64,000 nucleotides of DNA from Psammoneis japonica (GCA_008632985.1 QPGO01000109.1:186001-250000); one strand, 5' to 3'; positions 24,597-58,015 are shown, counted from the stretch's first letter. The notes: generated by a model not told the origin, from the letters alone. Program-made: numbers and translations.

Positions 24597-27500
24597 TCAA
24601 CCGCGAAAAGGAATCAGGCGCCGAATGTTGAGGCACTCAACCACATGAGGAGCTCGACAAACCGAGAGTGTGCCATTTACATGCACTTGAACAACAGGAC
24701 AAGGACCATGAGCACGAGGCTCGAGTCTGGATGGCTCAATGTGCTTGATTAGAACTTGATCACCCACTTGATGATCGCAGGATCTTCTCTTGGCATTGGC
24801 TCGTCGCAAGTTGTCGTTGATCAGCGTCTGGCGATGGCCTTGAATCGTCAACAAATCCGCCAGCACTGGGACATCCAAGATCATGTCACGTCCGAACACC
24901 ATGGCACCTGGTGAAATCTGCAAGGAACGGGAAACAGCACAATGGGTTGCACACATTGCAGTTGCCAAAGCATCGTCCATGAGGCTGGCTGCATCTTGAA
25001 GGTTTTGAGGTGGATCAGAAGCAATGAGCGTGTGCAACACATTGCCGACAGTCTGGTGCATTCATCCACAAATGGCGTTGGCTTGAGGGTTGTGTGAAGC
25101 AGTCGGCACATCATCAATTCTGGCTCGTTGCAATGGCATCTGAAATTCATGCCCGGTGAACTCGCCGCCGTCATCGTGGATGCATCGATTCGGTCTGGGA
25201 TGGCGTGCAAGCCAGCAGTTTTCGAATTGGTTGGCAACATGTCGAGCAGTTTCATTCTCAATTCTCACCAGTTCAACAAGATTGGAGACAGGATCAACAC
25301 AGGTCAACGCGCGAAACTCAATCTTTCCATTCGGCACTTTGATTTTCCACGGGCCAATGAGGTCAATCGCCACTTCCGACCAGGGGGTCAATGGAGCTTC
25401 TCGTTCGGGCAGCTCTCCACAGCCAGGACCCAAAGTTTTGTTACGTTGGCAATCAGCACAAGAACATTCATCACACATGCGACGTAACCCAGGGTGACAA
25501 CAATGAGCCTGGATTGTTTCACGCATGCGCTGGCTTCCAGCATGGCCAAGGACGAGATGACACCACCGTAAGATGTCGGGCATGAGCGCAGTCGGCAAAC
25601 AAATTTTCCATTGTCCTGGAGAATCATTTGATCGCATACGATGACACACAAGCAGTCGATTGTTCACACATTCCACGAGGAAACGATCAGGGTGAGCAAT
25701 GCGCATCTGGTTCAATTGTTGGTCCTCGAACTGGTGCTCTTGAATCCGTTGTAACGTCATTGGATTTTGCATCTCCTGCATCGTAGGGTAATTCAAAAAA
25801 GAATCGAACAGTTCTGGCTCATCAACAAAGAAAGAGAAGAAGTGTGAGTGGCCTTCATTTTCAATGTTGCGACAACACTTGAATCGGCATGTGCCGAGCT
25901 CCAAGTCCTCATCGCGGAAATCCTTGACTTCGGATGGTTCCTCACTCGGCACCAACTTCGAATCGAGCGGAGCAAAATTAACAACAGTTCCTTTACCCGG
26001 AGCCAAGCTCTTCCCTTCAGAGGGAGGATCCATGCAAGGCAAACGAGAAAAACAATCAGCCAAGACATTCAAGCGGGCTTCGACACAATGGAATTGAGGG
26101 GCAAAGTCTTCAAGAAAGAGGCGCCAACGGAGCACACGTTGTGAATTTAAGGTGCAAAAGGCAAGGTTCTTGTGGTCGGTGAATGCACGCAAGTCGCCGC
26201 CAAGAAGCATTGTTCGGAATTCGCGGAAGCACATGACAATGGCCAAGAGTTCTTTTTCGATCGTCGAGTGGTTTTGTTGCGCCGCATTCAGCTTTCGAGA
26301 CCAACATGCAACAGGTTTTCCGACTTGTGCAATTGCTGCGCCCATTTGGCAATCACTGGCATCGGTGTAGACATGGAAGGGTTTGTTGTGATTCGGGTGC
26401 GTCATCAACGTCTCGGCCGCTAGCACTGCTTTCATCTCTTCGAACGCTGCCTGACAATCTGTTGTCCATGTCCACGAGCCTTTGCCTGTGAGATCTGTCA
26501 AGGGTTTCAACAAGTGAGAATGCCGAGGCCACATGTTGCGACAGCATGTCACAGCACCAAGGAACAAACGAAGCTGCTTGACATTTTCCGGAGGTTGCAT
26601 TCGCAGAACAGCTTCCACTTTCTTCTTCCACGGACGAATTCCAGTCGGAGTTAGCCAATGCCCAAGGAAATCCGTTTCCTGCACACACCATTCACATTTC
26701 AAAGGGTTCACTTTAAATCCAGCTTCTTCCAAACGTTGCAGGAGTTTGTCGAGACGAGCAAGGTGAACATCAAAATTGTCATCAAATTGAGCGAGATCAT
26801 CAACACATGCGTCAACGTCCAAGTCATGTGCAGTTTTCTCAATCAAGCATTGTGCAATGTCCGGAGCCGGCTTCAAACCCATTGCTGGACGGCAGCATCG
26901 ATGCTTTCCAAAGGGTGTCACGATTGTCATCAGATCTTTGGAATCGTCGTCCAGTTCAAACGTACAGTGCATCATTGAGAGATCCAACTTTGTAAGAAAT
27001 TTGTGCCCGGCTCTCTTTTGCAACACATCTTGAATGATCGGCAAGGGACAAACCTTGCGCTTGAGGGCTTTGTTGAGTTCCCGAAAGTCGCTGAGCCACC
27101 GCACTCGACCATCTTTCTTCGGTCGAATAAAGGCACCTGCAGCCCATTCCGAAGTTCCGGCTTCTTCAAGAACGCCAAGAGCCACTGAGTGATCTAATTC
27201 TCGCTTGAAAGTCTCGAGATCATTGTGCGGCACTGCACACGCTCGAGAATGGCGCGGAACGGCATTGGGATTAATGTCAAGGTGAACTTTTTCGCCAGCA
27301 CACTTGCCAAGGGTGCCATCAAAAAGAGCAGTGTGTTTCTCCAACACGAGACGCAATTTCTCTTGTTGTTCGGCAGCAAGATGCTTCTGAGCTGAAGCTG
27401 CTTCAGACGGGGACGTCTCCTCACACTTTGCATCGAGGATGCAACTGTCCCACACGTCATCATCATCAGCCAGCTCATCAGTTAAATCATCGAGCCATTG

Positions 27501-28088
27501 TTGGATGCCAGTCCGCTGATTCTTCGGCTTCATTGCAATGCTTGAACCGAGCCACTTGACAATTCCGTGTTCGAAATCCAACGTGATGCCCGCTCTCGCC
27601 AAGAAGTCCTGTCCAAGGATCACATCATGTTGGCAGGGTGAGTCAAACACATGCGCATGCATGCCATCAACATGTTTGGTCTTGTCGAATTCAGGGAGCA
27701 CCAAGTCCTGCAATCAAACATAACGAGTTGATTCGAATTCTCCTGCTGTTGTCCTAAACTTTGCACGAATCGGTCCTGTCTCTTCCAATGCTGGAACCGC
27801 TCCAACCGGCAACACCCGAGCATGAATCATTGGGTGGGTTCCACCGGAATCAAGCAACACCCGCATCACGCGCTTGCTTTCCTCATCTTGAATGAATCGC
27901 GCCATGAATGAGGTTGCAGGGACCACATTTGATGGTTCAAATGGTTTTGTTTTTGGAGTTGGTGCAGCGCACTCAAGTCCCACATCGTCTTCATCATTCA
28001 CAGCACAATTTCTGAAATCATCATCATCAAATAAATCAGCAGCGTGTGCACAACAATCATCAACACAATCAGTGCAATCATCAAACAC
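24597..28088 (-). pseudogene. Gypsy pol (protease, RT, RNase H, integrase) with in-frame stops
   Basis: LLDSGG protease; LSDFRELN, LDLSMM, TPFGK, ACVDDL (YxDD); YTDASD, IEKELL, TDHKNL; HLVLGH...CADCQ; IDLIGP, DDGGEF, PQANAI. Confidence 0.93.
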
Positions 28089-28924
28089 ATGAGAATCAGG
28101 AGCGACACACTCGGACGACAGCTCTTCAAGCTCATTGGGTCAGTGTTGACCGCGTCCCGAGAAGCGACCACCAGGTCGAAGAATTCCCGTTCCACCTCGA
28201 TGCTCTCGAGGCCCTCCCATCGAATCAAGATGATGGCTTTCAGCAGACCAATCATCAGGAGGAGCCGTTCTGGCCGGATTGCCGCAACCGCCGCCATCTG
28301 CATTGGTTCGGGTGTCGTTTTGACACTGCATGTGAGAGCCACCATCATCATGATGCTCGCCGCTGTTGCCGCCAGAGTTGCAGTTTCCGCGACCACGGCC
28401 TTGCCAACCACGACCTTGCGCTCCGCCACAACCATGACCTCCGCCTCAACCGCCACCTCGACTGCCACGGCCACCATGTCCGCGACCTCCGCGATCAGCT
28501 CTTGGACGGCAGTTGTTAGAGTCAGGATTCATGGCGCAATCTCTCCACTTGTGATTGTGAGCATGCCAAGGACATTGAGGTTCTGGGTCAGTGCGGTTGC
28601 CTTTCTTCTTGGCAGAGCCGCCACCTTTCAACTGTCTGTCTTTGCGCTTCTTCGAAGTCTTCTTGTTCCCATCTGCAAATGATTTCTCCGTGCTCACACA
28701 CGTGACAATTTCCGCTGACGCATCATTTCCAATCGTGCGTCCTGCTCTTGCATGCATCTCGCGCCACGACAAAGGGAAGCTGTCGAAGATCATCTTCTTC
28801 TTCTGGTTCTGAGTGACAACTGGATTGTTTCCCGGCAACTTGTTCGTGTGTCACACTGAGGTCTCCATTCGATCTGCGTGTGCCTGCACTTCAACATCAT
28901 GTGGCTTTTTAAGAGAGAGCAAGT

Positions 28925-29313
28925 GACGCGTTCCAGCCCTGGGTGGGACTCCGTGTGACATTGGGCCCGTAGAATTCTACGTGCGAGCTCAGCAGTACGA
29001 GAATTTAATCAATGGACACATTTATCTTCAACATCAAATAAACGGCCAAGTTTGTGGTGCAATTACGCCTCTCACCACTCGACGTTTTTGCAAATGCACC
29101 TGCCCTGCGCGATTCTCAAGACATCACAGAATCGCACTGTAACAAAAAATGTCAAAAGTTGTTGGACGGATCGCTCAACAAGTGCACCGTAAAATGACAC
29201 AAAACATCAAAAAAATCACGTAGAAATCTACGTGCGCGACATACGACGTGATTCAAAAAACTGTCGATGTCACAGTTCAGCAGTGCGAGGTCCCACCAGA
29301 CCTGGAACGCGTC
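28925..29313. mobile_element. MITE-A (389 bp), TIR GACGCGTTCCAG, 4-bp TSD aagt
   Basis: aagt|gacgcgttccag...ctggaacgcgtc|aagt; second copy at 52472-52861. Confidence 0.92.
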
Positions 29314-29615
29314 AAGTGTTCAATCATCGTGTCACGCGCTTCAGTTTCACAATGTGACAAATAAAAATGAGCCAATTCTTGGTCAAAACGAGCCACCGTC
29401 TTTTGCGCATTCGGAATCGCCATGGTGAGATTGGACCATTTGTCTTCAGCGGCATCTGTCAACACTTCCTCGAAATTGTCAAACAGTTCTTCGCCTGCAG
29501 TGAATTCAAGTTTTGCAGCCAGTTTACGAAAACGATCTTCCACGAACAACAACGCTTCAATGCCATTAGTTCCATCAAAACAAGGGCACTTCTTCGTACG
29601 CGTGCTACCATCATC

Positions 29616-30144
29616 GACGTGTTCCAGCCGCTCGTGAACCCAATCGTGCACAAAAACGACATTTGCGCGATTTTTGCGCGGTCCCTAACTTACGATCGAA
29701 CTTTCACCACCAAAAGTATAGATTTACTCAAATATATATGTTTTGCAACACTAACAAGACTCGTGTGAGTGTTGCAATATCATTGTTATTGTGCTATCTA
29801 TGTTTTTCATTGCGTTAAACGATTCGTAACACAACGGATGATTTTCGGCGAAAATATTGCCGTTACAACGATGCTATTTGGTATGTTTTCTACCTACAAA
29901 AAAATCTCAGTATAAATCTACTGACGTACAATCATTATTGAGTCTACTGAGGAAGTTTATGATACATATCCCATGAGGATTTGAATGCCCCTCAAAAAAC
30001 TATTTAAATGTTCATACTCTAGAGTCCTATAAAAGTCAATCCGTCTAAGTATTTTTATTAAAATGCTCCATACACTAGAATATACATAAATTATATTCAA
30101 AATCCGATTGTCGTTTTGTGCGTCACCTGGGACTGGAACACGTC
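29616..30144. mobile_element. MITE-B (529 bp), young TpA-rich copy, TIR GACGTGTTCCAG, 4-bp TSD catc
   Basis: catc|gacgtgttccag...ctggaacacgtc|catc. Confidence 0.92.
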
Positions 30145-30476
30145 CATCATGCGATTGAGTCAATTTTGCAAGTTCCAAATCCGAGTGAGCAAATTTCACA
30201 GCATGCAAAATGCACGGTTCTTTAAGACTCTCGCGATTGCTCATCAGGCCAAGTTGGTCCTCCAAGAAACTGCTTCAAGCACTCTACCTTCGACTCGAGT
30301 TGTGCAACCCGAATCGCCAAATCTTGTTCGCATTGTTTTCGTGTCTCCTTTTGCCGTTTTTGTTCCAAAGCCCAATTCGCTGCCTTCGCTCTCAACATTC
30401 TTTTCTCTTGTTTCGTAAGCCTGTTAGTTGCATCGTTGTTTCTCATTCAGCTCTTTACAATCGACTGTAATTACAG

Positions 30477-30641
30477 TGCAAGCTCAAGCTGAAAACTGAT
30501 GTCAAAACAAAGAAGTGAGTAGACCGAAGAGAGGGGAGCCTAAGCGTTAGCGAACGGTGGCGAGCCTCTCTCAAACGGCTACGTTAATCTAATATCCAAA
30601 ATTTATACTATATATCAGAAGCGTGCGAGTGAGTTGCTGCA
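30477..30641 (-). repeat. Gypsy 5' LTR (165 bp)
   Basis: Direct repeat of 24304-24473 with a 5-bp indel. Confidence 0.95.
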
Positions 30642-31010
30642 ATCAACGGTCGGTCATTTGTATTAGAAATAAGTATGTTAAAGAACGTAGAAGATGATTT
30701 AATTTTGATTTTGGATTTCTCCCTCCAACACGCACATCGCGCGAAACAAACACGCGCATCGTCTCACGTGCCGGGTCGCGACGGACAAGCACATTCATGT
30801 CATTGCCGAGAATAACGTATCTTCACTTTCAACAGTGCCAATTCTCTCTCTTATACCACAGAGAAAAGAAGAACTGTCTGTAAAGAGTGAACCAATAGAG
30901 TAGTTGGTTCGATTGGTTTGGTTGGAGTACGTTGTCTCATCCTTCTGCTTCTCGAACTACGAACTACATCTCACATCTCACCTCGTTATAATGATATAGA
31001 GCTTTGCAGG

Positions 31011-32607
31011 ATGTTACTACGGTTGTTGTTGTTGTTATCGTGCTTGTTCCAATTTGCACTCGCAGATACTCCCGAACAAAACTTATGCGGCTTGTATTTG
31101 GCTCCCTCGTCCATTCCCAATGCGGGTCTCGGTGTGTTTGCGGGTCACCAATCGTTTCAACCTGACGATTTGGTGGTGCATGGTGATTTGGTAGTGCCAT
31201 TGTATGACATGCCCCAAGATGCGTATCCCATTTTTCCATGGGATGATTATACGTGGGGTGCCGATGGGACCTTTCCAAATGGACATGAAGAACAAGACGA
31301 TGAACACACGATAACGGCAGCCATTTTTGGAATGGGTGCTGCGATTAATTGCATGTTTGGATTGGTCAATGTCGATGCCACCCTGCCCAAATCGGACAAT
31401 GCCGGCTTGCATCGTTCTCGAGATCCAGGAATCGGTGCCTTTACTCCGTATCATGATCGGAAAATATACGCTTATACAGAGATTCCCGCCGGTATGGAAT
31501 TGTTTGGGAGTTATGGTGAACCCTACTTTACAACACGTACCGAAATTTATGGTTACATTCCCTTTGAAGACAGCTTTAAGCAAGCCGATCAAGTCATTCG
31601 GAAATTTGTCAATCTCACCAAGAATGCAACCTTGTGGAGGACTGCTGCCAAGGAGGAAACTTCAAATTCATCGCGACGCTTTGGTGCTCTGTGGGACACG
31701 ATTGTTGGTATGAAACATGGAATTGGATTTGAATCAAGAGCCCTTCATGCATTGCCAGAGGAGTATTCTTCCGTAAAACACATTGCCGAGATTGGTACAT
31801 CCCTAACACATTACAATCGATCCATTCGTACCATGGAATGGCTCGAAGAACATGGCAAGTGTGCCGATAACATTCGACCGGGACTATCGACCCTTCCTCA
31901 AGCGGGCCGAGGAGCCTTTGCCACGCGATTTATACCCAAGGGTGGCTTGGTCGCTCCGGCTCCCTTGATCCATATACCCGATCGGGCCATTTTGGATATC
32001 TATGACGACGATGATAAGGACAAAGTGGTTCATCAACAACTATTGCTCAATTATTGTTTTGGACATGCCAATTCGACATTGTTGCTCAGTCCTTATGGCA
32101 TATTTACAAGTCTCATTAATCACTCATCTCAAACACCAAACGCCAAGATTATATGGTCGAAACACATGGCCCACGCGGAATGGAAAAACATGTCGGTCGA
32201 ATCCTTGAACAAGTATTATCATGCCGGATTGGCATTTGATTTTGTAGCATTGCGGGATATCCACAAGAATGAAGAAATACTCATTGACTATGGACCCGAA
32301 TGGGAAGATGCATGGAAGGAGCACGTCAAGACGTATGTTCCCGTCAAGGATTCTATTCAGTATCAGACTGGATTTGAATTAAATGAGGATCTTGACCGTA
32401 TATTGTGGTCATACGACCAATATCCATACTATTCGCCAAATGTCACAATTTGGATGCATGGTATCTATCTCGAGTACCTCAGCGGAACAACAGCGTCGGA
32501 AAAACAACAACTTGACTATTGCATGATTCGAATCGTTGGACATTATTTTGTTGGCAAACAAGTCTTGTACAATGTCGAAGTCATTGAGAGGATCGAGGAG
32601 GACGACG

Positions 32608-32640
<33 letters not shown>

Positions 32641-32801
32641 GAGAAATTTTCAAACACGTAGTGTTTGGTGTGCCTCGTGATGCTATTTTGTTTAAAGATG
32701 AACAATACACCCGCGATCATCAAATGCATTCGGCATTTCGACACACAATGATGATTCCAGATGACATGATGCCGACGGCTTGGAAGAATTTGGTAAATTG
32801 A
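31011..32801 (+). CDS. Signal-peptide protein with two SET-like domains
   Basis: MLLRLLLLLSCLFQFALA signal; CGLYLAPSSIPNAGLGVFA...INC...EIPAGMELFGSYG; STLPQAGRGAFATR...SLINHS...EEILIDYG. Confidence 0.8.
32610..32640 (+). repeat. (ACA)n poly-Thr microsatellite in CDS
   Basis: About ten tandem ACA. Confidence 0.9.
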
Positions 32802-33181
32802 AAACGAATATAGACACTTGCGTTGTATAATAGCGCCTTTCGAAAATCATGCGGACGGACAGTTGTCGCTATGGTTTTAGTACAATATACCGTAGCGCTC
32901 GCTTTTCCACGGTGCCGTGCCAAGAGAGAACTGTCACTAACGCCTCTACCAGTAGTAGCTACAAACGAAATACGATAGAGAGCTAGCGCAAATACTGGTA
33001 CTGTCGGAAACCTTTCCCTAAATTACAACACTATTACTATCGCGCAGTAGGCTCACAACAGCTTACGATATCCGGTGATAGTGAGCGACGAGGTTCCCAC
33101 CGCAATATAAACAAATACACTCATAGATCCAAAGCGGCCGAAGACCACTGAATCTTCACAAAAGATGGAAGAGTTTCAAAT

Positions 33182-35395
33182 TCAGTATGGGCAAGTATTC
33201 GGAGTGCAGTAGCCTCCCTTGAACTTTCCTCCCTTCCTCCAGCAAACTGCCTTCCTGAAAATCTTGCATTTGCCCTTGGTTCCCAAACAGCAGGCACCAG
33301 GCTTATCCGAGATTGGGCAGGTACCAGGTTTGCACACTGTACCCAATCCAACAAAGTGTCCCTTCTTGAGGCCACACTGCTTCTCCTTGACCACAATGCA
33401 TGAGTTATCCGATAAGCAGCAGGCACCATATGCGGCTGGGCAAGTCCTCTTGTTGCACTTCTTTCCAGGAGTGAAATCACCTCCTCGCTTCTTGCACACC
33501 AATCCCTTGAGGTTGCGGCACAATCCCTTCTCTGGGAAGCAGCAAGCTCCGACCGTGTTCGAGTTATCAGGTGGACAGGTATTGTTGGGACCGCAGTGTG
33601 TGCCATCACCAAAGTAATGACCGTAACGCCGCTTGCAGTTTCCAGGCTTGAGTTTGAGACAACGGCCCGTCTTGAGGCAGCAAGCACCAGTCTTTCCGAA
33701 AGTCGGGGGTTTTGTAGGACGAACTGGAACGGGACAAGAGTTGTTGGGACCGCACGGTTTGCCAACTCCCTTGAAATCACCGTCTCTCTTCAAGCAATTT
33801 CCCTGTCTGAGAACCAGGCAACGCTTATTCTTGAGGCAGCATGCACCCTTGTTGTCTACAGGAGTGGTCGGTGGTTCGGTGGGCGTAGGGCCGGGGCATT
33901 GGATGTTGTCGCAGGTGTTTCCAAATCCAAAGAACTTTCCTTGGCTCAACAGAACACAGGAAGTAAAGGAGGAAATGTAGCACATGGGATCTCCGGGGAA
34001 GCAGCAAGGACCTTCGGGGTCGTCCGGATTCGGAGGAGAAGGAGTGGGGCTCGGGGTGATAGGGCAGTGGATATCGTCGCAGTTGCCTCCATTCACGAAT
34101 TGTCCACCAGGCTGGCTAGCACATGTTTGTTCCGAGGAATCGGGAAGGCAGTATGGAAGTCCATTTCGAAGAGTAATGCAGCAAGCACCGGATGGGGACG
34201 GCGACGGGGGCTCGGTGATTGGGCAAACAATGTCTTTCGTGCATGTTGGTCCTTCACCAAGCCACTGACCCATGTTGACCTTGGTACAAGTTTCGAAGGA
34301 TGTCGTGAAGCACCTGTCGAACCCTGGGACGCAGCAACCTCCAGCACCAGGTTCCACTGTAGGAGAAGGGGTTGGTGGGTCGGTAATCAAGCAAATTTCG
34401 TTCTTCTCGTCACACACGGTACCGAATCCACGGAATCGTCCAACAGCTCTCTTACAGTCGAGCCTTGTCAGCTCGGCACAAATCTCGCCGCCATTGACGC
34501 TATCAAGGCAGCACGCGCCGGGCACATGCTCAATGGTAGTAGGAGAAGGGGTTGTGGGAACCTTGGTGGGAGCAGCAGTAGGGGCTGGGGTGGGAGCCGG
34601 AGTGGGAGCGAAGGTCGGCTGTTTGGTGGGGCAAACACCGTCTTCAGGCTTTCCGCACATGACTCCGCGACCCTTGAAGTCACCTCCAGCAATGTTACAC
34701 TTGCTCTTGAATTCGTAGGTGCAACCTCCGTCAAGGCAGCACGCGCCCCTATCGGGACAAAGACCTCTCGTACAGTTCACACCGGCGGCAACAAAGCTGC
34801 CACCGAGGAGACCGCAAGATTGCTGGGAGGTGTTATCAAGGCATCCATCCCAAGGCGTGCAGCACGCACCGGGACCATCCTCGAATCTGGTCGGACTAGG
34901 AGTAGGCTTGGCGGTAGGAGCACCGGTGGTAGGGGCCATGGTGGGCTCCTTCGTAGGAGACTTGGTGGGCTCCGCGGTTGTTGGTGCCGGGGTAGGAGGT
35001 GTCGTAGGCGTAACCGTAGGTGATGGAGTTGGGCAGACGAATGTGTCGCAGTCGACGCCAAAGCCGTTCCACATGCCATTGAAGTTGGGATGCGTGCACG
35101 AGTGGTAGGACAGAGTGTAGCACGTGAAATCCTTGCAGCAACCACCGAGACAATCCGTAGTACAGTTTCCGCCCTCAAACCATTTACCCTTGACGGCGTC
35201 GCAAGCGACATCTGAAATTCCCGAGTCAGCTGGAATACAGCTGTCCTTGCCGTGAGGACTGCAACAGATACCGGGGGGCGAGTACAAATCTCTCTCGACC
35301 GGCAAATCAAACGCGACCTCGTCTGAGCCGGCTTGGGCAAGCCACGGTGTAACCAAAGCCCCAACGCTCACGAATGCTGTGAGCGCGAACTTCAT
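33182..35395 (-). CDS. Secreted Cys-rich protein with ~13 G(A)CC modules, Pro/Thr linkers and a Lys-rich C-terminal part
   Basis: Signal peptide MKFALTAFVSVGALVTPWLAQA; repeated GxCC-x(n)-C-x(n)-C-x3-GG.F.G.G..C...C; PTxxPT linkers. Confidence 0.85.
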   Translation of the reverse strand: MKFALTAFVSVGALVTPWLAQAGSDEVAFDLPVERDLYSPPGICCSPHGKDSCIPADSGISDVACDAVKGKWFEGGNCTTDCLGGCCKDFTCYTLSYHSCTHPNFNGMWNGFGVDCDTFVCPTPSPTVTPTTPPTPAPTTAEPTKSPTKEPTMAPTTGAPTAKPTPSPTRFEDGPGACCTPWDGCLDNTSQQSCGLLGGSFVAAGVNCTRGLCPDRGACCLDGGCTYEFKSKCNIAGGDFKGRGVMCGKPEDGVCPTKQPTFAPTPAPTPAPTAAPTKVPTTPSPTTIEHVPGACCLDSVNGGEICAELTRLDCKRAVGRFRGFGTVCDEKNEICLITDPPTPSPTVEPGAGGCCVPGFDRCFTTSFETCTKVNMGQWLGEGPTCTKDIVCPITEPPSPSPSGACCITLRNGLPYCLPDSSEQTCASQPGGQFVNGGNCDDIHCPITPSPTPSPPNPDDPEGPCCFPGDPMCYISSFTSCVLLSQGKFFGFGNTCDNIQCPGPTPTEPPTTPVDNKGACCLKNKRCLVLRQGNCLKRDGDFKGVGKPCGPNNSCPVPVRPTKPPTFGKTGACCLKTGRCLKLKPGNCKRRYGHYFGDGTHCGPNNTCPPDNSNTVGACCFPEKGLCRNLKGLVCKKRGGDFTPGKKCNKRTCPAAYGACCLSDNSCIVVKEKQCGLKKGHFVGLGTVCKPGTCPISDKPGACCLGTKGKCKIFRKAVCWRKGGKFKGGYCTPNTCPY

Positions 35396-43507: not shown

Positions 43508-43938
43508 GGTGAGAGCGCTGCGGGGGAGCTGAGCAGAATGAATGCGAGGCGTGCGAGAGGTGCGTCAATGCAGTGCCCAACAGAGAATGGGAATGTGTGC
43601 TATTTTTCTCCGATTTTGCGCTTGGTGAGAAACGACGAAGCTGGATGGAGCACAAGTCTGTCTTTTATTTTGACTAATCAAATGATAAGTAGAAATAAAG
43701 GATAATGTAACTTTACTCCGTACAGTATAGAGTCCTCCTATGCAAAATATAGTTACGTACTCCTAGAGTAAAAAAGAGGCATCGACCAGGCGTGTCAATG
43801 GGTCTGTTTGCGCGCAGGGCTCTGGATTATTCTCTATAGAAGAGCCCTTTTCTGTAATGTGTATATTGAATGTAAACATGTAGCAACCGATAAGCTCATA
43901 GAGCGACTTGCTCTGGTCAGATGTAGAAAGAAATGTAG

Positions 43939-47158: not shown

Positions 47159-48512
47159 ATGAAGTTCTCTATTGTGAGTACCTTGTTCCTTGCTGTGGCT
47201 GCCCATGGCCACGAGCAAGACGACAGGCAGCTGGACGGTGTGTATCCGACTGGAGCTTGTTGCAACCCCGACAAGCGCGAGTGTAAAGATGGTGTCATTC
47301 AGAAGGATTGTACGTACGGATCCTGGTTGGGTGCGGGCACTACGTGTGCCGCGAACTGCGTCTTTCCACCTCCGCCGACGCCAACTGTTCCGCAGCCCTT
47401 TCCGGCTCCCACCCCGGCTCCGACCCCACCTCCGACTCCTACGCTCAACTTTGTTCCCGGAGCTTGTTGCTACAGTAGGCTTCCGTGTGCCGTATCGCCC
47501 AAAACGTTGTGTGACAACACCGGAGGAGACTGGAAAGGCGGCGCTACTAACTGTCAGATGCCTGGCATCTGCCCTACCGAGTTTGAACCCACTCCGGCTC
47601 CCCAGACGAACCTCCGTCGGATTCGGGATTCGGAGCCTGTTGCTACGCCGCGACTCAAGTAAGTTATTTTCTACACGAGAACATTTTGTTTGCATCTGTT
47701 TTTCTATCGTGTCCGCTCAAACTTACCATATTTTCTCTTTTATTATCCTTGTCATTGTAGACTTGTACCTTGAGTCCAAAGAGCACTTGCGATGACACGA
47801 ATGGCAAATTCGTTGGTTTTGGAAGCAACTGCCGTGGCGATGCTTGTGGTTTCCCTCCAGCCCCGACTCCTCCACCCCCGACTCCTGGAAAGACTCCGAC
47901 GCCTCCGACTGGAACGCCTCCGACTGGAACGCCTCCGACTCCAGGTGGGGGAACACCTCCCAGCGTGGTGCCTCCCGGTGAACGAGGTAAATACCGTCTC
48001 TTCGCATTCGTTGTGCCTGTCTGAACGAATCTTGTTTTCTGACCCTTGATAACTATCTTTCATCATTTTGCAGGTGCGTGCTGCTTCACTTCTGGAAAGA
48101 AGGAATGTCTGATCCTAAGGCCCGGAGTTTGCCGCAGAAAGGGCGGACATTTCGTTGGCCCTGGCACTTACTGTGGTCCTCGTAACACCTGCCCAACCGG
48201 TCCGAAACCACCCATCAAGCCTCCGATCAAGCCGCCAACTACTGTAGTAAAGATTGGATCTTGTTGCTTTAAGAAGGAGGGCAAATGCCTCAATCTCAAG
48301 AGGGAGCTTGCTGGCGTCTGGGAGGTCACTTTGCCGGCAAAGGTATTCTTTGTAGCCCGAGGACTTGCCCTGAAGCTTTTGAGCGTGGAGCCTGCTGCTT
48401 CCCTGGCGGTAAGTGCAAGGTTCTACCCAAGTCCAGGTGCCACAAGAAGGGAGGGAAGTTCGAGGGCGGCGCTTGCTACCCAAAGAAGTGCCCCAAGAAG
48501 CCTTACTATTAG
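47159..48512 (+). CDS. Second secreted GACC-module protein (paralog of 33182-35395), 3 exons, two apparent 1-bp frameshifts
   Basis: Signal MKFSIVSTLFLAVAAHG; introns 47659-47760 and 47987-48073; C-terminal GACCFPGGKCKV...KGGKFEGGACYPKKCP matches the paralog. Confidence 0.75.
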
Positions 48513-48813
48513 TTGCGTCGAGACTGCCGGAGACTTTGCCGAGCTCCTCTTTAGGATACCGTGTATGCATATTGCAGTTTCGAAGCCTACAGCCTTGCAT
48601 TTTTCTCGTGGTGTGACCAATCATGGGAAAAGGTTGTGGCTTTTGTATGAAAATGCATATCATTGTTTAAGATTAGGATATTTGTTTTAGCTTGAAAAGC
48701 TTCCGTCTTTTGCTATCTGCACAAGTGAGTACCGGTAGTTCTTTTCAACAAGTTGCTCTTTGGTCCGCCGGTTGCGTGCGCACTCGTGACATGAGGCCGA
48801 CGCGATATACCGA

Positions 48814-49860
48814 TTGGTCCCGATGGATGCAAAAAGAAGGAATCGCTTGAGCTGCTCCTTAAATGACGAAGACACAGTCTTGGGCACCACGAGCGTTTCT
48901 CACGATGCCATGATGGTAGCTTCCGAAACGGGAATTACCGGTCAACGTAGAATTGGTGACGGTGGAGCCTCCTTGGAGTTTCGTGTGACCCTCTCCGCCG
49001 TACTCGAACCCACGGATGCGGATACCCTTGTCAAGGATGATATTTCCAAACTAGACCTCACTGCATCCTCGAATCACCCTCGCAAAGCCAAGGGGGCAGC
49101 TCGTCTCACTGTTTTGAAAGGCTGAGGATTTGAAGTGGAAAACAGGAAACACCGATTGATCAAGCGTAGGGACGTGCCGGATGTCTACCGCAAGAGGAGG
49201 ACAAAGACGATCCGAAAAACTTATACCAGATAGTGGAACGAAGCAGCAGACTATTTGTTGTTAGATCATGGACAGATTATCAACATTGAAGTGTTTGACG
49301 AGGACGAGAGACGAGAAAGGGCGCACTGAATTAATCTCACGTATTGGGCGGTGCCCCTGACCCCACTTTCACCCCAGATTGTCAAAATGTGTAAAACACC
49401 CCTGTTTTGTAAAACGCCCTAGTAACAAGCAGCGGCTTGGGTCGTCATGGTGCTTTCGACAGTCGAGTCGAGCAGTTTTTGGTGTTTGCGCATTCAAATC
49501 GCGCGCACTGACAGTGAATGTTCACTTCCGGGTTCCTTTTGGTTTGGGTTCGCCATCAAAAATGACCAACGACAGACTGACGACAGACCGACGAATGCTC
49601 GAAAAAGCCTGCTACGTAGGATCCTACGTAAGATATAGGGTAATGAGCCAAAATGTGTGTTTTACACGACGAAGCACGTGTTTTACAGAATAACACGTGA
49701 TTTTACGATTCCCCCCCTCCCCCCCCCTTCACCGCGAAGGTTGCGCCCAACACGTGAGATTAATTCAGCGCGCCCAAAAGGACGACGAGCTCGTAGGGGC
49801 TAGGATCAATGTTGGAAAACTGTTGGCAGCTGGAGACCGAACGGACGTGGAGCTTTTCGA
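48814..49860 (+). pseudogene. C2-domain gene fragment with stops, split by a MITE
   Basis: ARLTVLKG*GF...DVPDVY...KTIRK...WNEAADYLLLDHGQIINIEVFDED...(MITE)...DDELVGARINVGKLL resembles a C2 domain. Confidence 0.5.
49319..49775. mobile_element. MITE-C, 32-bp TIR starting GGGCGC, probable 3-bp TSD (PIF/Harbinger-like)
   Basis: gggcgcactgaattaatctcacgtattgggcg / cgcccaacacgtgagattaattcagcgcgccc, flanked by aaa on both sides. Confidence 0.82.
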
Positions 49861-51063
49861 AGCAGGCAAGCCAAGCGGAAAGTGCATTTCCACACGCTGC
49901 GACTTTGTCAACCCATGAAGGAGCAGTCAAAGTGTGTGCCTTTTCAATTTAGTGGTAGATGCTCAGAGCACCTGCGACGAAAGCAGTCCAGAACACTTCA
50001 CTGGATCGAAAGATTGCGCGATGCGAATCATCTCAGAGATCGGGTGCCCAAGGCACAACAGCATGAAGGATGTCTCCTTCCGCTTGATGAAGCTGTCGGA
50101 CCCATTTTCCACATGGCAGGCCCATGTGCTCGGCAATTTTTTGCTTGTAGATAAGAGAAGCACAGCAATGAGCACCCGTGCATTGTGTGAGTGCTTTGCA
50201 AACACACACTTGTGGAACACGTCGTCCAAAACCTTCGGGTTCTCCGTGCAGTTGTCGACAACTCAAGCATGAAATCTCCATTCCGAAGCCATTTCTTCGA
50301 CATGTGCAACAAATCTCCATACAACGTGGCACTTGCCAGACAGATTTCATGATCCTGTGCCCATGGTTGACGTCTGTCAATCTGCCTGTCGACTGCGCGC
50401 AATCGCGCGCTTCAATTTTCAAATTCCGCCATCAAAACTCTGCTCGACATTGCAGTCATAATTTTTCAGTCAACGACTTTTGCAACAACAACAGCTGCTA
50501 GTTTACAACCTTGAGCATCAGCTCTTTTGACATCTGCAGTCATGGATCGGTGCAACAAGTGGTCATCGAGCCCAAACGCAGTGTGCAGAGTCTTCAACCG
50601 GAACTGCACCAATCCACCGCGTTCTCGTCGAACGCAACAGTCATCTCAAGCCGTCGATCGTCCGTTTCAAACGGAATCGCCGTTCATCGATTCGACAGAC
50701 GTCTCCAGTCTGTCGACGTCGATGCTGCGCACAGCTGAGCCTCCCTCCTTCGTCGATGGGCTCGCATGCATTTTCCCGCCACCGGAGCCGATCCACGGAG
50801 CCGGAATCATCATCGTCAAGCGTCGTCATTTCCGGCCATTGCGATGCCAAACCCGGATTGAGTCGTTTTGAACTCTCCGAGTCCACACCAAGTCAAGACC
50901 TGCCTCTCACACCATTCGACGATGATGCTCTCGTTGCCGATTGATTGTTGAGCTTCTGCGGCAGTCTCCCAACGATGCGGCGTTCAGAACTTCATTTTGC
51001 CGTTTGTGTTTCAAACTCTACGTAGCTTCAGTGCCAAGTTCTGCGCATTGATTCAAATCCACC

Positions 51064-53215
51064 ATGGCCGGAACGCCGTCAACGACTCCGTCCAAGACCC
51101 CCAAGGGCACCAAGACTCCGCAACAGAGGAGTCAGACTCCTCAACCTTCTCGAACCGGCAATGGGACATCTGCTGCTCCCGCTGGCAATGACAGCAGTTC
51201 CACCACAGGAGCCAATCAACCTCCGCCTCCTCCAAGGCGTGGAGGAATCCATCCAGAACATGGGCGACACATGGGCGGTTCTCCATCAGACGATGACTGC
51301 ATGCCCAAGCTGCCTCGTTCCTGCCGCTCAACTGACCAGTGTCGCGACAAGAAGATTCTACCGCACATCGAGCGCACTCTTCGCGAAGCTCGAGATGGAA
51401 CACTCGTCGTCAAGTTTTACGGAAACCTCGAGCTCACTGACACGACCTCCAACGAGCTCGATCAATCCCACTTCGTTCAGGCCATCCATGCCCTTGTCAA
51501 GGAGCATGGCTTGGAGAACTTCTTCACTGTGAAACTCGAGAAGAAGGTTGTGTCGCCATTCGACCATCTCCACTCTTTTACGGTCGACGAGGTGATTGCC
51601 GAGTGCCTTCATCGCGCCAACGTCGCCAAGGACTTCACTGCCTGTGACGATTACGAGCACAACGACATCGCTCTCTCCCGATTGGTTGTTGAGTCTAGAA
51701 TCTCCCACCGATTCCGCGAGAAGATCGAGGTCCAATTCGGACATGACGATCTCTTTGAGCACTGCCCCGGTCAAGTCCATTTGATGATGGCTTTGGACAC
51801 TTGCAATGCGTCTGCCACACATGACGTTGCCCAAGCTGCCGAGGACCTTGATGCTCTGTCGCTTGTGTCCTGCCCGGGTGAGGACGTGACTGAGTTTGCT
51901 GCCGAAGCTCTCCGTCTCACCAAGCTGCTCCAAGCCGGACATGCGTCACCCATTGACCTCGGGTCGAGCATTCTCAAGAAGTGCCAGAAAACCTCCTGCG
52001 AGGCATTCAATTGCAAGATTTACGCCAAGTTGGACAAGGTGTCGACCATGGAACACAAGTGTCGCCTTGGCGATCCCAAGGCGATTGCCGCGGACTCCAA
52101 ACATGATGAACTCGGGCCTGCAGCGTGCATTTCCTTCTTGCAGAAGGAGCATCGCTTCTACGTTGCCGACAAGGATTGGCCCGGACTTTCAACCAAGCTC
52201 CCTCAGAGCAACAACGCTTCCAAGACCGGAAAAGGAGCCTGCAATGCATGTGGTGCTCCAGACCACTGGGCCAACGATCCCAAGTGTCCCAAGTGTGCCG
52301 AACGTCAGAAGCGCAAGAAAGAAAAACGTGAGCAGCGTCGACAGAACAGTCGCAAGGACAACCCAACGGTTCCACCTGCCACCACCCTGCCTCCTGCGTC
52401 TTCCGTTGCGGTTGACACTGTCCCTGCTGACAAACAAGCCAAACTCAAGGAGTTGCTCACCAACGAGCCCCGACGCGTTCCAGCCCCAGGTGGGACTCCG
52501 TGTGACATTGGGCCCGTAGAATTCTACGTGCGAGCTCCGCAGTACGAGAATTTAATCAATGGACACATTTGTCTTCAACATCAAATAAACGGCCAAGTTT
52601 GTGGTGCAATTATGCCTCTTGCCACTCGACGTTTTTGCAAATACGCCTGCCCCACGCGATTCTTAAGACATTATAGAATCGCGCTGTAACAAAAAATGTC
52701 AAAAGTTGTTGGACGGATCGCTCAATAAGTGCACCGTAAAATGACACAAAATATCGAAAAAATCACGTAGAAATCTACGTGCGCGACATACGACGTGATT
52801 CAAAAAACTGTCTATGTCACAGTTCAGCAGCACGAGGTCCCACCTAGACCTGGAACGCGTCCCCCATCGTCACACCCGTCCGGCGGATCTATCCAAACCC
52901 GTCGTGAACAAGTGCGGTTCGACCACGCATTTTTGTGGAAAGTGCACTTGCAAGCACACCGGCATTCGGGGGATGTGTGCGAATCACAAGGAGTCAGATC
53001 ATGTTTGCAAACCACTGAAACAAGAACCACCTGCGGCCAATCTTACCTCCATTGATGACCCAGATTCGGGCGTCCCACCTGGGCCACCCGCTCAGACTGC
53101 TCCAGACCCAACCAATGCGCCCGAGCCCTCTCCTGCTGAGGACGAGCTTGTTTGGACTGGATTCCATTGCTGTGTGGTCGAGGACTCGTCTCCTCCCACC
53201 CCGTCTGTCGCGTGA
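51064..53215 (+). pseudogene. Copia gag interrupted by MITE-A
   Basis: Zinc knuckle CNACGAPDHWANDPKC; second Cys/His cluster FCGKCTCK...NH after the MITE. Confidence 0.8.
52472..52861. mobile_element. MITE-A (390 bp), 4-bp TSD cccc
   Basis: cccc|gacgcgttccag...ctggaacgcgtc|cccc; homologous to 28925-29313. Confidence 0.92.
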
Positions 53216-53353
53216 GTCTCCTGCAAACCCGCTTCTGCGTCTCAGAGGGAGCGCCTGCCAGTTGCAGTCGAGACTGTCAAACCTGAAGATGCTGACGACT
53301 TCAGCGATTGCTTCGATGCATGTGACGACCTGTCTTGGGACGATTCCATTGTT

Positions 53354-56300
53354 GTGTTTCCGCCCACGACTCCTCCTTCATCCAGTGTCCCTGCTTCGGG
53401 TGCTCCGGCTCCTGCGGCTGAGTTTTTCTTCGATGCCGAGTCCGGACCCAAACCCGCGCCGGATCCACCGGTTCCCCAAGCTCACCATCTGTTGCCATGG
53501 GATCTCCTCAAGCTCCCGCTCTTTTGGATCTCTGCAATGATTTGGGAGGGTCTCCTGTGGCTCGTCTGCTCCCAGGATGATCCCCCCCCTCCTCCCCGCC
53601 GTGTGCATCGCCTCAAGCACCGCCCTGCGCTGCATCGCTGCCCCTGTCGTTGGGGCATGATTGCGTGCGCGATTGCGCTTTGGCATTTTGTGTGCGGCGG
53701 CGCTGTCCCTCCCCACCCCTTTCAATCATTGGACCGCCTCTCTTCTCAAACATGCGAAGTTGTCTCCGCTCTCGATGAGTGCGTCGATCCATCGCCCGGT
53801 GCGTTCGTCCAGCACCATGCCATCAAGGTCAGACAATTCAAATGTGAGTTGGCGCACTCAGAGGGAGACAAGCAAGACACCGCCACTCTGCCTTTCGAAC
53901 TTTCCGAGTTGGTTGACAAGAGTGACAATGACCATTTCTTTGATGCGTGCACGGAGCTCCCCGTCCATGCGGAATGCTTCTTCGATGCTGACACCTTCCG
54001 CGAGTCTGACTGCTCGAGCCCGGACATCTTCGGCATTGCTGACTTGTGTCACGCCCGCTACTTCGTCGACTGCACCAATGCTCCGGAGCTCGCTGCGGAG
54101 GATCCCTCGGCCTCCCCCGCTTTGCCGACCTCCGCTGCACTTCGTGCCATTTCCGGGGAGACCCAACTTGCGCGTCTCGCCACTGATCCCCAGGCCCTCT
54201 TCCACATCGGACCAAGTGATCTCCAGGTCATTTTTGATGCTGGTGCCTCGCAGGCCATCACTCCTGACGAGAAAGATTTTGATGGTCCGATCAAGCACTG
54301 CCAGACCCCGCTCTGCCTCGGCGGCATGGCTGACGGCATGTGCATCACTGGTGAGGGCACCGTCACGTGGACCTTTCAAGCCAGGGAGGGTCACGAAATT
54401 ACTGTCCAGCTCCGCGCCTGTCTCGTCCCGTCCTCCAAGGTTCGCCTGCTTTCTCCACAATGTCTCTTCCATGCAGACGGCACCAAAGGACATTTTTGGG
54501 GTGACAGTGAGATTTTCAAGGTTTGTTTCGCAGACACGCCGGAGTTGACGCTTGAGTGCGACGAGCGCTCCCACTTGCCGGTTGGCTGCGCGACTCTCGG
54601 TTCTGTCCATGCACCACAAGTCAATTTGAGCACCATTGGCGACCCGGACAACCTCAATCTGTCTGCTGGACAGAAGCTTCTCAATGAATGGCATGCGCGC
54701 TTTGGGCACTTACATTTTCCCAAGATCCAAGCTCTGCTCCGTGGCCATCCGTTCGAGGCCATGAAATTCAAGGCAGCATCCAAATGCGACATTCCAAAAT
54801 GCGACACATGCGAACATGCCAAGGCTCATCGCCGTTCTTTGAAGTCTACCATTCACAAATCCGACCCCAAGCGCGATGGCGCATTGAAGGCTGACCATCT
54901 CAATCCGGGCCAGTCCGTCAGCGTTGACCATTTCGAATCGCGTCTCAAGGGCCGCACCTGTGATTCATGCGGCAAACCGTCCTCCCAGCAGCATGTTGGC
55001 GGCTGCATCTTTGTCGACCATGCCTCTGGTTACATCCACGTTGAACACCAAGTCGGTTTCTCCACTGTCAAGACTGTTCGAGCGAAACAGGCATGTGAGA
55101 CCATGGCAATGGGACACGGCGTGATCGTCCAAACTCACCTCACCGACGGTGGCGCTTTCAAGGCCAACCAGTTTGTTTCCCACGTCCATGACTCCCAGCA
55201 ACGCATGCGCTTTTGTGGTGCCAACGCTCATCATCAAAATGGTGTTGCCGAACGCTCCATTCAGTCCATCTCCAACATGGCTTGCGCCATGATCCTCCAT
55301 GCTTCGATTCACTGGTGTGGTGGCATCGACAGCTCTCTGTGGCCCATGGCGGTGCACTGTGCTGCCCACATCTGTGATGCTGCTCCCGGTGCCCATGGTC
55401 TGTGTCCCGCCGACATCTTTGCTGGCTCTGCCGTCCCGTGCCACCGCCTCCGCGATCTCCATGTTTGGGGTTGTCCCGTCTACGTCTTGGATCCCAAATT
55501 GCAAGAGGGCAAGAAACTTCCCCGTTGGCAGCCGCGTTCTCGGCGTGGTGTCTTTCTCGGACTCAGTCACATTCACGCCAGTGAGGTGCCATTGGTCCTC
55601 AATCTCAATGCTGGCTCCATCACTCCCCAGCACCACGTTGTGTTTGACGATCTCTTCACCACAGTTGCTTCGATCGCGAGGGAGAGCGAACCGCCGGATC
55701 ACTGGGAAGAATTGTGGTTGGAGAATGCCACTCAAATTCCCTTGGACTCATCCGATGGACCGTTGTTCCTTCAAGACGACTGGCTTGCTCCTGCTGAACT
55801 TGAACAGAAACGACGACATGAGACTGGGGAATGCAATGTTCGTGCTGCACGTCAACAGCAGCAGAACTCACCGAAACCCGTTGAGAAGCCAACACCTGCA
55901 GCGGATCCTTTGCCAACTCCAAATCCACCGTCGTCTACACCATCGATGCCAACAACTGCAGTTGATCCATCACCGACACCACCGCCACAAACACCGTCGC
56001 TTCAAAACCCATCATCGCCAACACCTCCGGTTGACGATCCTCCACCTTCAGTTGCACGTCCGCCACCTGCTGCTGGCGATGGTCCGGGCACGTCAGTCCC
56101 ATCCACGACTGCTCCAGTCCCACCTGAACCTTCATCCACGACTGAGACACCAGGGGTGCGCCGATCCCAACGTTCGAACAAGGGTGCGCGCACAACTGCT
56201 CGTTTCGCCAATGAAGCACATCTGGCTTCTGTTGTCCCTGACGATGTTGGAGGACAACAGGCTCAGCTTGCCCATTTCGCTGAGATCCAGACTGACTGTG

Positions 56301-58015
56301 ATTCGGGTGTTTTGGACATTCAGGACCCGCGGATCTACGCCGCTAAAGTCAAACGCGATGCGGATAATCCGAATGTTCGCGAGGCTCTCTCGGGTGATTT
56401 CGCTGAGCAATGCATTGAAGCCATGAAGACGGAGGCATCTGCTCTTGTAAATCGTAAAACGTGGCAATTTGTGAAACGGGAGAAGTCAATGAACATGCTC
56501 AAGTCCACGTGGGCATTCAAGTTGAAACGATTGCCGGGTGGCACGCCGCTTGAGTTCAAAGCGCGATTTTGTGTCCGAGGAGATCCACAAAAAGAGGGAG
56601 TTGACTGCTTCGAGACCTGCGCTCCAGTGGTCCAATGGTCGACCATCTGTCTCGTGCTGAGCGCTGTCCCACAAGAAGGATGGACCACCCGTCAGGTCGA
56701 TCACACCAACGCTTTTGCGCAGGCCGAGATGACGGAAGACGTTTGTGTCGAACCACCCAAGTGTTTCGCTCCCAGTTCGGGATCCAATGTTGTCTTGAAG
56801 CTGCTCAAGAGTCTCTGCGGTCTCAAGCAAGCTCCCAAGTGCTTCTTTGACAAGCTGCGTGAAGGATTGTTGGAACGTGGATGGACCCAGTCGCAAGTCG
56901 ACCCGCGCCCATTTTTCAAGGACGGCATGATTTGTGTAGTCTGTGTTGATGATGCTGTCCTCGCTGGCAAGAATGGAGCCACTCTAGAACATGAGATCAA
57001 GGCTCTAGGCATCCAAGACGACGAACAACGCCATGCATTCGAGTTGCGAAACGAGGGAGAAGTTGGTGACTTCCTCGGCATCAAGATTCGCAAAACCGGA
57101 CCCAAGGAATTCCTCCTCACCCAGCCTGGACTTGTTGACAAGGCCCTCAAAACAGCTGGCATGGAAGATTGCCGCTCTTCTCCCACTCCTGGTGCTGCCT
57201 CTCCATGTCATGCGGATAAAGAGGGAGCCGAATTCGACGAGAACTGGGACCACCGTTCCGTCATCGGCATGTTGATGCATCTGTCATCCAACTCCCGACC
57301 AGACATCTGCTGCGCCACGCATCAAGCCGCCCGTTTCTCACATGCTCCCAAGCATTCCCATGCGATTGCGGTGAAGCATGTTCTGCGCTACTTGCAAGGC
57401 ACCAAGGACAAGGGACTCTGTCTGCGCCCTGGCGACAACGAACGTGTTGATTGTTTCGTTGACGCCGACTTCGCCAGCCTCTACGGTCACGAAGACTCTC
57501 AAGATCCGGTCAGCGTCAAGTCCCGCACCGGATGTGTCATCTTGCATTGCGATTGTCCCATTTTATGGGTTTCTAAGCTGCACACGCAAATGGCACTCTC
57601 CACCATGGAAGCCGAGCACCTTGCTCTGTCGGCTGCGATGCGCGACCTGATTCCGATTCGTGAAATTTTGAAGGAATTCAAGTGTCATGTTTTCGGTCTC
57701 ACGGATTACAAGACCCCTGCCACCACCAAGTCCAAGGCCTTTTCAGATGCAAAGGATGGTGCGATCCCTTCTTCAGCAGTTTATGAAGACAATCAGGCGT
57801 GCCTCAAGTTTGCGAAAATGGCCAAGTTATCTCCACGTGCCAAACACATTGGCATTCCCTGTCATTGGTTCCGCACCAAGGTTGAGGCTCTTGAGATCCG
57901 GATTGAGCCTGCAGGAACTGATTCCCAGTTAGCTGATCAATTTGCAAAGGGACTTGTTGCTGACAAGTTTGAATCTGGTCGGTTGAGTCTCTCAGGCTGG
58001 CAGCTCTGCGGTTGA
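53354..58015 (+). pseudogene. Copia pol, open frame but catalytically mutated
   Basis: VIFDAGAS protease; WHARFGH...CDTC; VSVDH, TDGG, QNGVAER; FKARFCVRG, LKSLCGLKQAP, VVCVDD; DADFA, STMEAE, EDNQAC, QLADQFAK. Confidence 0.93.

Follow-up and report, generated by a model that had tools for sequence, protein, structure and literature searches.

Mutational defence of genomes is best known from fungal repeat-induced point mutation (RIP) and from the cytosine deaminases of animals. RIP, which operates in Neurospora and other ascomycetes, converts CpA to TpA, creates stop codons and mutates both copies of a duplication. In animals, APOBEC3 and ADAR enzymes act on cDNA or RNA during replication, mark one strand and leave edits that are common to both long terminal repeats (LTRs). 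A process that changes the A:T pairs of TpA has been reported once so far, in a preprint of 2026 that deals with a rhizarian alga, the chlorarachniophyte Bigelowiella natans (Mettrop et al., bioRxiv 10.64898/2026.01.13.699255). Here, we describe a stretch of 64,000 nucleotides from Psammoneis japonica (GCA_008632985.1, QPGO01000109.1:186001-250000; this whole stretch is called the window below), in which one Ty3/Gypsy and one Ty1/Copia LTR retrotransposon lie in DNA that is very poor in TpA, and compare it with these systems.

In B. natans, 15 mutation-accumulation lines yielded 231 new mutations within an integrated giant virus and a virophage; of these, 230 were A to G or T to C changes, all of them at TpA (Mettrop et al., bioRxiv 10.64898/2026.01.13.699255). 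They arose in some lines only, at about 1000-fold the background rate, and reverse transcriptase and DDE domains were over-represented among the coding sequences with low TpA (bioRxiv 10.64898/2026.01.13.699255). As a proposal, the authors put forward an ADAT2 homologue as the agent; the main text of the preprint contains no occurrence of diatom, retrotransposon or tyrosine (bioRxiv 10.64898/2026.01.13.699255). In a literature search on TpA hypermutation and diatom transposons, this preprint alone was found for the signature, and nothing was found for diatoms.

Based on the results below, we consider it very probable that the window is diatom nuclear DNA in which two integrated LTR retrotransposons lie in sharp tracts where a DNA-level process turned nearly all TpA into TpG or CpA, and that this process is of the same kind as the TpA hypermutation of B. 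natans. TA is the ancestral state, and the changes post-date integration, affect both strands and were made site by site.

The DNA was assigned as eukaryotic nuclear DNA of a diatom by the relatives of the encoded proteins. The top named relatives of a 693-codon sulfate-permease frame are from Bacillariaceae sp., Nitzschia inconspicua, Cylindrotheca fusiformis and Pseudo-nitzschia (59-62% identity where a percentage is listed), and the Copia polyprotein has its named relatives in Fragilaria crotonensis. When dinucleotide observed/expected ratios were mapped in 500-base bins, two kinds of DNA were seen to alternate along the window. The gene blocks have TA ratios of mostly about 0.4-1.2 (lowest bins 0.30), and four sharp-edged TA-depleted blocks (1-6500, 12500-22500, 24500-29300 and 50000-64000) have ratios of 0.00-0.26. 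The exception among the depleted bins is 52501-53000 (0.59), inside which a miniature inverted-repeat transposable element (MITE) is nested. The depletion amounts to 5- to 30-fold, and TG and CA rise in the same blocks to 1.3-2.3 times expectation. CG is not raised in the erased DNA, which fits a process that needs an intact TpA and ends once either base has changed. It should be noted that blocks without a recognisable retroelement protein are also erased: a Pfam scan of the 64 open frames in the remaining erased blocks gave just four weak matches below the cut-off, and these blocks were left without classification.

The diatom lineages of Ty1/Copia and Ty3/Gypsy elements are named CoDi and GyDi. 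The domain orders of the two elements in the window match these superfamilies, whereas the copies themselves are tyrosine-poor mutational wrecks. In the Gypsy element, a purine tract immediately precedes the 3′ LTR, and Pfam places RVT_1 (residues 198-353; 44.9 bits against a cut-off of 29.6) ahead of RNase H (416-537) and integrase (707-876). Its best matches in the PDB are Ty3 structures (E = 6e-40). In the Copia element, whose polyprotein was aligned by tblastn in two parts (51247-52356 and 52868-58000), the integrase lies ahead of RVT_2, the Pfam domains being gag_pre-integrs (485-536), SH3_retrovirus (745-812) and RVT_2 (1081-1325; 106.5 bits against a cut-off of 31.6). A PDB sequence search with the Copia reverse transcriptase region gave no match. 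Bacterial promoters and terminators, which have no relevance in a eukaryote, were looked for at the LTR edge with no hit. The closest relatives of both polyproteins are environmental and diatom proteins with 56-65% identity. A tblastn search of the window with both polyproteins and five relatives revealed no additional Copia or Gypsy copy, and the best relative in a representative-library search was 57% identical, so that this search supplied no close family member by which non-conserved sites could be polarised.

Every Tyr codon is TAY, and TAY becomes a Cys or His codon by one transition. A process that replaces TpA by TpG or CpA therefore turns Tyr into Cys when the A to G change is on the sense strand and into His when it is on the antisense strand. 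For each element, 120 relatives were aligned over residues 1040-1599 (Copia) or 130-883 (Gypsy), and a column was called conserved when at least 80% of the relatives had the same residue. The 11 conserved Tyr columns of Copia hold one Tyr, five Cys, four His and one Phe, while 213 of the 236 other conserved columns are kept (Fisher p = 4.8e-9). In Gypsy, one Tyr, ten Cys and five His stand in the 16 Tyr columns, and 258 of the 277 others are kept (p = 5e-15). For both elements together, Tyr is kept in 2 of 27 columns (Cys 15, His 9, Phe 1) against 471 of 513 (92%) for the other residues (Fisher p = 6.7e-23). When plurality-Tyr columns are taken (n = 49), the counts are Tyr 4, Cys 24, His 11 and other residues 10.

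The reverse look-up gives the same picture. Plurality-Tyr columns hold 9 of the 24 Cys and 4 of the 18 His residues of Copia, and 15 of the 38 Cys and 7 of the 32 His residues of Gypsy; the average relative has 0.0-0.1 Cys and 0.5-1.3 His on such columns (120 leave-one-out controls). Genuine Cys and His columns are retained in both elements. The share of Tyr is 0.50% in Copia and 0.23% in Gypsy, compared with medians of 3.07% and 3.56% among their relatives. Further changes at conserved positions extend the TA rule over codon borders: all six Thr to Ala changes read t|GCN, that is, t|ACN to t|GCN across two codons, all five Ile to Val changes read t|GTN, the single Lys to Glu change reads t|GAA, both Leu to Pro changes read CCA and the single Leu to Ser change reads TCA. 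Four conserved cases of Arg to Cys or His fit CpG decay.

In the catalytic YxDD motif, both elements read CVDD. The Tyr column of this motif contains Y115/W4/F1 in the relatives of Copia and Y108/F12 in those of Gypsy, with Cys in 0 of 240. In the Ty3 reverse transcriptase structure 4ol8, YLDD lies over the CVDD of the window, and Tyr lies over the His and Cys of the two other Gypsy motifs in question. The first-pass annotation had quoted seven motifs in the reverse transcriptases of the two elements as bearing Tyr to Cys or His changes, and all seven were located in the two long frames, inside or near RVT_1 and RVT_2 (Table 1). The last of them, DHRSVIG, lies at 57248-57268 on the 3′ side of the Copia RVT_2, 290 bases past the end of the span 26790-56960 to which the annotation had assigned the phenomenon; between the two elements, this span consists mostly of ordinary host genes, which are outside it. 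At eight of the ten positions for which Tyr had been taken as ancestral, 81-100% of the relatives have Tyr (Copia 1135, 1201, 1243 and 1346; Gypsy 249, 250, 273 and 303), and the claim holds for these; the other two columns are mixed Tyr/Phe (Copia 1131, Y66/F51; Gypsy 271, F64/Y54).

The Tyr-erasure signature occurs in other elements or organisms too. A search with the Copia reverse transcriptase-RNase H region gave four Tyr-poor proteins among its 150 best representatives. Three Copia polyproteins from public sets (P0512, P0499 and P0484; 35-37% identical to the query) have kept none of the 11 conserved Tyr residues and carry 7-8 Cys or His there, with Tyr shares of 0.05-0.76%, and three ordinary hits from the same representative search have kept 4, 6 and 10 of the 11.

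The polarity can be read from DNA independently of the proteins. A repeat of 530 bases is present at 14500 and, in the Gypsy leader, at 29613. At 39 sites the copy at 29613 has TA where the copy at 14500 has TG or CA, the reverse was found at none, and four TA are shared. The annotation had argued for TA as the ancestral state from the parallel changes in two unrelated superfamilies; this is borne out both by positions where 108-120 of the 120 relatives have Tyr and the elements read Cys or His, and by the 39 versus 0 sites of the repeat pair.

The timing follows from the Copia LTRs, which differ at 10 of 195 positions, six of these forming three TG-versus-CA dinucleotides. At each of the three sites, the ancestral dinucleotide must have been TA (or CG) and have changed separately in the two LTRs, and since the LTRs were identical at integration, the change occurred on chromosomal DNA after insertion. 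Sites of the same kind were found in an old repeat pair at 5156 and 21475 (13 TG-versus-CA sites) and between the two MITE copies (4 TG-versus-CA sites and 7 sites with TA in one copy and TG or CA in the other). Both strands were hit, as each element has Cys and His outcomes and TG and CA are both raised. In runs tests on the order of TG and CA within the depleted blocks, z ranged from -0.72 to +0.36, and no strand tracts were detected.

The host genes within the window are untouched by the process and serve as an internal control. The permease contains 1.30% Tyr against a median of 1.14% in its relatives, and it retains Tyr in 2 of 2 columns and the conserved residue in 313 of the 319 others. 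More generally, Tyr makes up 1.3-5.0% of host open reading frames, compared with 0.09-0.50% in pol and the other open reading frames of erased DNA. The tract edges do not coincide with the element edges. TA is sparse from 24445 to 29606 except within the MITE, and the spared parts of the Gypsy element lie directly upstream of host genes, namely a DUF846 gene (23477-24310, minus strand) and the SET-domain gene (from 30891). We infer that the edges follow the chromatin state rather than the borders of elements or repeats, and that the process was still active after the MITEs had landed.

The process makes no new stop codon and eliminates TAA and TAG. The loss of these codons leads to long open frames in erased DNA, and the open frame of Copia is expected regardless of function. 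Indeed, erased DNA contains many overlapping frames of at least 100 codons on both strands, for which the loss of TAA and TAG, rather than the presence of genes, is the likely cause. An open frame of 1111 codons without a Pfam match was observed at 18004-21339 (plus strand). Judging from the lost residues, inactivation would act by missense and would be permanent for both elements, which seem to be members of the reverse transcriptase family by descent and not working enzymes. That missense change destroys function, as had been supposed in the annotation, is well founded, with Cys at this motif position in both elements but in 0 of 240 relatives and lower reverse transcriptase profile scores (RVT_1 44.9 bits for Gypsy against 77.4-86.6 in the five closest unchanged relatives; RVT_2 106.5 bits for Copia against 125.2-149.6), and it is stated here as a probable effect deduced from the sequences. 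Additional lesions are one MITE in each element and two in-frame TGA codons in the Gypsy pol at 25062-25064 and 27714-27716 (minus strand; first bases 25064 and 27716). The TGA at 25064 overlies an Arg that is conserved in three relatives, and it fits a change of CGA to TGA.

Compared with B. natans, as far as that case is described in the preprint, the window is alike in that changes are restricted to TpA, turn it into TpG or CpA and affect both strands, that they cluster in windows of mobile or foreign DNA, and that host genes are spared. The differences concern the organism (a rhizarian chlorarachniophyte there and a stramenopile diatom here), the targets, which in the window are LTR retrotransposons and other repeats, and the degree of erasure, as the TA observed/expected ratio is 0.45 in the viral region of B. 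natans and 0.0-0.2 here, near saturation. Moreover, new mutations were recorded there, while the window bears a historical footprint. Every feature of B. natans-type TpA hypermutation that a sequence can reveal is present in the window.

RIP resembles the process inferred here as a mutational defence of the genome that uses one transition type in one dinucleotide context and leaves sharp tracts with a strong dinucleotide skew. It was rejected as an explanation because its polarity is opposite: here TpA is lost, TG and CA are raised, TAA and TAG are removed and the coding changes are missense. A duplication trigger of the RIP type was rejected as well, as the two copies of the 530-base repeat have 6 and 47 TA and the MITE, in spite of its deep coverage, keeps 12 and 19. 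The activities of APOBEC3 and ADAR share with the present case a deaminase-type hypermutation that inactivates retroelements and becomes fossilised in genomes; they differ in that here both strands were hit and the LTRs diverged independently.

The extent of the loss depends on the flanking bases: TA between a purine and a pyrimidine (R-TA-Y) is lost most, and TA between a pyrimidine and a purine (Y-TA-R) survives best. The YTAR class makes up 62 (42%) of the 149 TA left in erased blocks, compared with a share of 16% in gene blocks (p = 1.8e-12). In the repeat pair at 14500 and 29613, TA before a pyrimidine survives at 0 of 33 sites and TA before a purine at 4 of 13 (p = 0.004). Tyr was changed to Cys more often than to His (24 versus 11, p = 0.04); as Tyr is always T-A-pyrimidine on the sense strand, the flank preference may explain this excess.

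Several points weigh against the reading given above. It is based on a historical footprint in one assembled window, and not on new mutations, a lesion or an enzyme. The TA densities of the four flank classes relative to gene blocks (R-TA-Y 0.013, R-TA-R 0.088, Y-TA-Y 0.117 and Y-TA-R 0.269) presuppose that the TA make-up of the erased DNA was originally that of the gene blocks. A strand-specific model, in which the flank of T-A-Y decides which strand is hit, is unsupported, as YTAY sites in the repeat pair became TG in 7 cases and CA in 8. Neither a pyrimidine after the site, expected to favour TG, nor a purine before it, expected to favour CA, shifted the outcome significantly in this pair (p = 0.74 and 0.24), and at Tyr codons the preceding base did not shift the Cys:His ratio significantly (10:6 after a purine, 14:5 after a pyrimidine, p = 0.72). 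As for targeting, the Gypsy LTRs (11 and 14 TA) and the leader at 29600-30460 (47 TA) keep their TA next to a saturated interior (24480-29600). The very abundant MITE also keeps most of its TA (12 and 19), each of its two copies having lost some sites independently of the other; its summed contig depth is 69,335-135,316 compared with 46-60 over the neighbouring gene, although depth is not copy number. Finally, the contig sample described next may be the assembly's own source, so that it would confirm the window only weakly as an independent witness.

One DNA sample (X1-X3) contains the stretch, with a word share of 0.46, whereas no RNA sample is listed for it; the DNA sample consists of contigs only, and X2 and X3 cover almost none of either element. 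Among the 40 differences listed, of 608, there are at least 17 places in the 7.9-kb Copia element where all X1 contigs contradict the window, six of which read TA and six CG where the window has CA or TG. The contigs thus speak in part against a wholesale base-calling artefact.

With regard to the mechanism, the agent would be an enzyme acting on silenced chromatin, and the likeliest candidate would be a deaminase that acts on adenine in DNA and prefers a T-A context; damage to the paired T would leave an identical footprint. The natural target of TadA/ADAT enzymes, A34, is preceded in the anticodon loop by the invariant U33 and thus has a T-A context, and engineered TadA variants deaminate A in DNA. 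No TadA/ADAT gene was found in the window, and a link of such an enzyme to the process is put forward as a hypothesis. We tentatively suggest, while regarding it as rather doubtful, that diatoms and chlorarachniophytes share a chromatin-guided DNA adenine editor, TadA/ADAT-like and recruited to silenced DNA, whose erasure of TpA disables mobile elements in a tyrosine-specific and stop-free manner, with edges set by active promoters and not by repeat homology. Edges of this kind would explain the sparing of the Gypsy LTRs beside host genes.

The opposite assumption, that T and not A is changed, as a modified or damaged thymine in TpA (e.g., one that is oxidised or hydroxymethylated and pairs wrongly with G) or by biased repair, seems unlikely to us but deserves to be taken seriously. 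In sequence terms, A to G on one strand is T to C on the other, the R-TA-Y rule can equally be read as a rule on T, and the footprint is symmetric, with both outcomes at similar rates and no strand tracts; the YTAY sites (TG 7, CA 8) do not behave as a strand-specific deaminase would predict. On the other hand, the excess of Cys over His (24 to 11, p = 0.04) is easier to reconcile with a T-A-Y preference on the sense strand than with a symmetric lesion, no evidence for a modified thymine in this organism was found here, and the only published case proposes adenine deamination, which is itself a proposal. We give very little credence to editing of retroelement RNA or cDNA before integration in an ADAR-like or APOBEC-like manner. 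Both elements replicate via RNA, sense-strand A to G changes are the commoner ones (24 versus 11), and ADAR enzymes favour U before the edited A (bioRxiv 10.64898/2026.01.13.699255). Nevertheless, the three TG-versus-CA sites between the Copia LTRs already contradict this route, the eleven Tyr to His changes need the opposite strand, and the Gypsy interior is saturated while the LTRs and leader of the same transcript are spared. The nested MITE, a DNA-type element, is partly affected with outcomes that are independent between its copies, and there are TA-erased blocks without a recognisable retroelement protein.

An assembly or base-calling artefact, in which a modified TpA was misread as TG or CA, is likewise highly improbable. 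It could draw on the possible common source of contigs and assembly and on the six Copia places that X1 reads as TA among the differences listed; however, X1 fully contradicts the window at the at least 17 Copia places listed, not at the hundreds that an artefact would lead one to expect, and misreading from both strands should also give CG and TA calls, while CG is not raised. In addition, the edges of the pattern are sharp and biologically sensible, lying at genes, and the same change was measured by short reads in the B. natans lines. Least credible is the view that the elements are active, their low TA being adaptive or a matter of composition, and that the CVDD enzymes work. The Copia frame is indeed without a stop over 1599 codons and its LTRs are 95% alike, but an open frame is what the removal of TAA and TAG produces, with long frames on both strands of erased DNA. 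The absence of Cys from the YxDD Tyr column in all 240 relatives, the loss of 25 of 27 strongly conserved Tyr while 92% of the other conserved residues stay, the MITE that splits the Copia frame and the two TGA stops in the Gypsy pol all speak against working enzymes. We therefore retain erasure of TpA on integrated DNA, of the kind reported from B. natans, as the preferred explanation.

If this explanation holds, the diatom footprint would extend TpA hypermutation to a second major marine phytoplankton lineage and to ordinary transposons. Should the agent prove to be an adenine deaminase that works on DNA, the engineered adenine base editors would have a counterpart in nature. The replacement of conserved Tyr by Cys or His offers a simple polarity test that needs an assembly only and can be applied to any element with a conserved protein. 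It also points to an annotation hazard, as erased DNA yields spurious long frames and predicted proteins rich in Cys and His, three of which are already in public protein sets.

Table 1. Features of the window that bear on the loss of TpA (positions counted from the first base of the window; TA, number of TA dinucleotides unless a ratio is given).
Feature	Position	Strand	Details
TpA-erased copy of a Gypsy leader-like repeat	14500-15053		6 TA; pairs with 29613-30140
Ty3/Gypsy LTR retrotransposon, LTR to LTR	24290-30644	minus	LTR repeats, purine tract, pol alignment, domain order
Gypsy LTRs	24290-24476 and 30461-30644		Direct repeats, 92% identical
TpA-erased tract over the Gypsy interior, not the LTRs or leader	24480-29600		TA observed/expected 0.04-0.26 (500-base bins)
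Gypsy pol reading frame, 1136 codons, two in-frame TGA	24603-28010	minus	tblastn with three relatives
Gypsy pol open frame (P0002)	25062-27713	minus	Carries the quoted Gypsy motifs
Gypsy RVT_1 domain	26655-27122	minus	DACVDDL 26793-26813, TPFGKHRCC 26892-26918, LDLSMMHCTF 26958-26987
MITE copy in the Gypsy gag region, about 385 bases	28929-29313		Terminal inverted repeats; keeps 12 TA; 94% identical to 52472-52861 in Copia
TA-retaining repeat partner in the Gypsy leader, beside the SET-domain gene	29613-30140		47 TA
Host gene block, internal control (SET-domain, TPR and sulfate-permease genes)	30891-49900		TA observed/expected 0.36-1.20; Pfam matches
Ty1/Copia LTR retrotransposon, whole	50366-58218	plus	LTRs, polyprotein alignment, domains; TpA-erased throughout except the nested MITE (TA observed/expected 0.00-0.20)
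Copia LTRs	50366-50560 and 58024-58218		95% identical
Second MITE copy, interrupts the Copia polyprotein frame	52476-52861		Keeps 19 TA
Copia pol frame (P0001)	53216-58015	plus	1599 codons without a stop
Copia RVT_2 domain	56456-57190	plus	VDCFETCAP 56600-56626, KSLCGLKQ 56807-56830, VVCVDD 56936-56953

Other observations concern the neighbouring genes and the erased blocks at the ends of the window. A helicase gene contains, at 9193-10512, six tandem 204-base units, which correspond to its six HA domains. Over 44573-45879, in the sulfate-permease gene, 11 of 1310 positions distinguish the X1 contig from the window, and 3 distinguish the X2 contig, which suggests haplotype or strain differences, or assembly differences, within one sample. 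CpG is low (observed/expected 0.13-0.58) in the erased DNA of 1-6000 and 59000-64000 only, and the Gypsy and Copia tracts have CpG ratios of 0.8-1.0. As these tracts are already poor in TpA, the loss of TpA precedes CpG decay. Arrays of a 26-base tandem repeat are located at 59885-62000, in two blocks about 1.5 kb apart, within the DNA that is poor in both TA and CpG.

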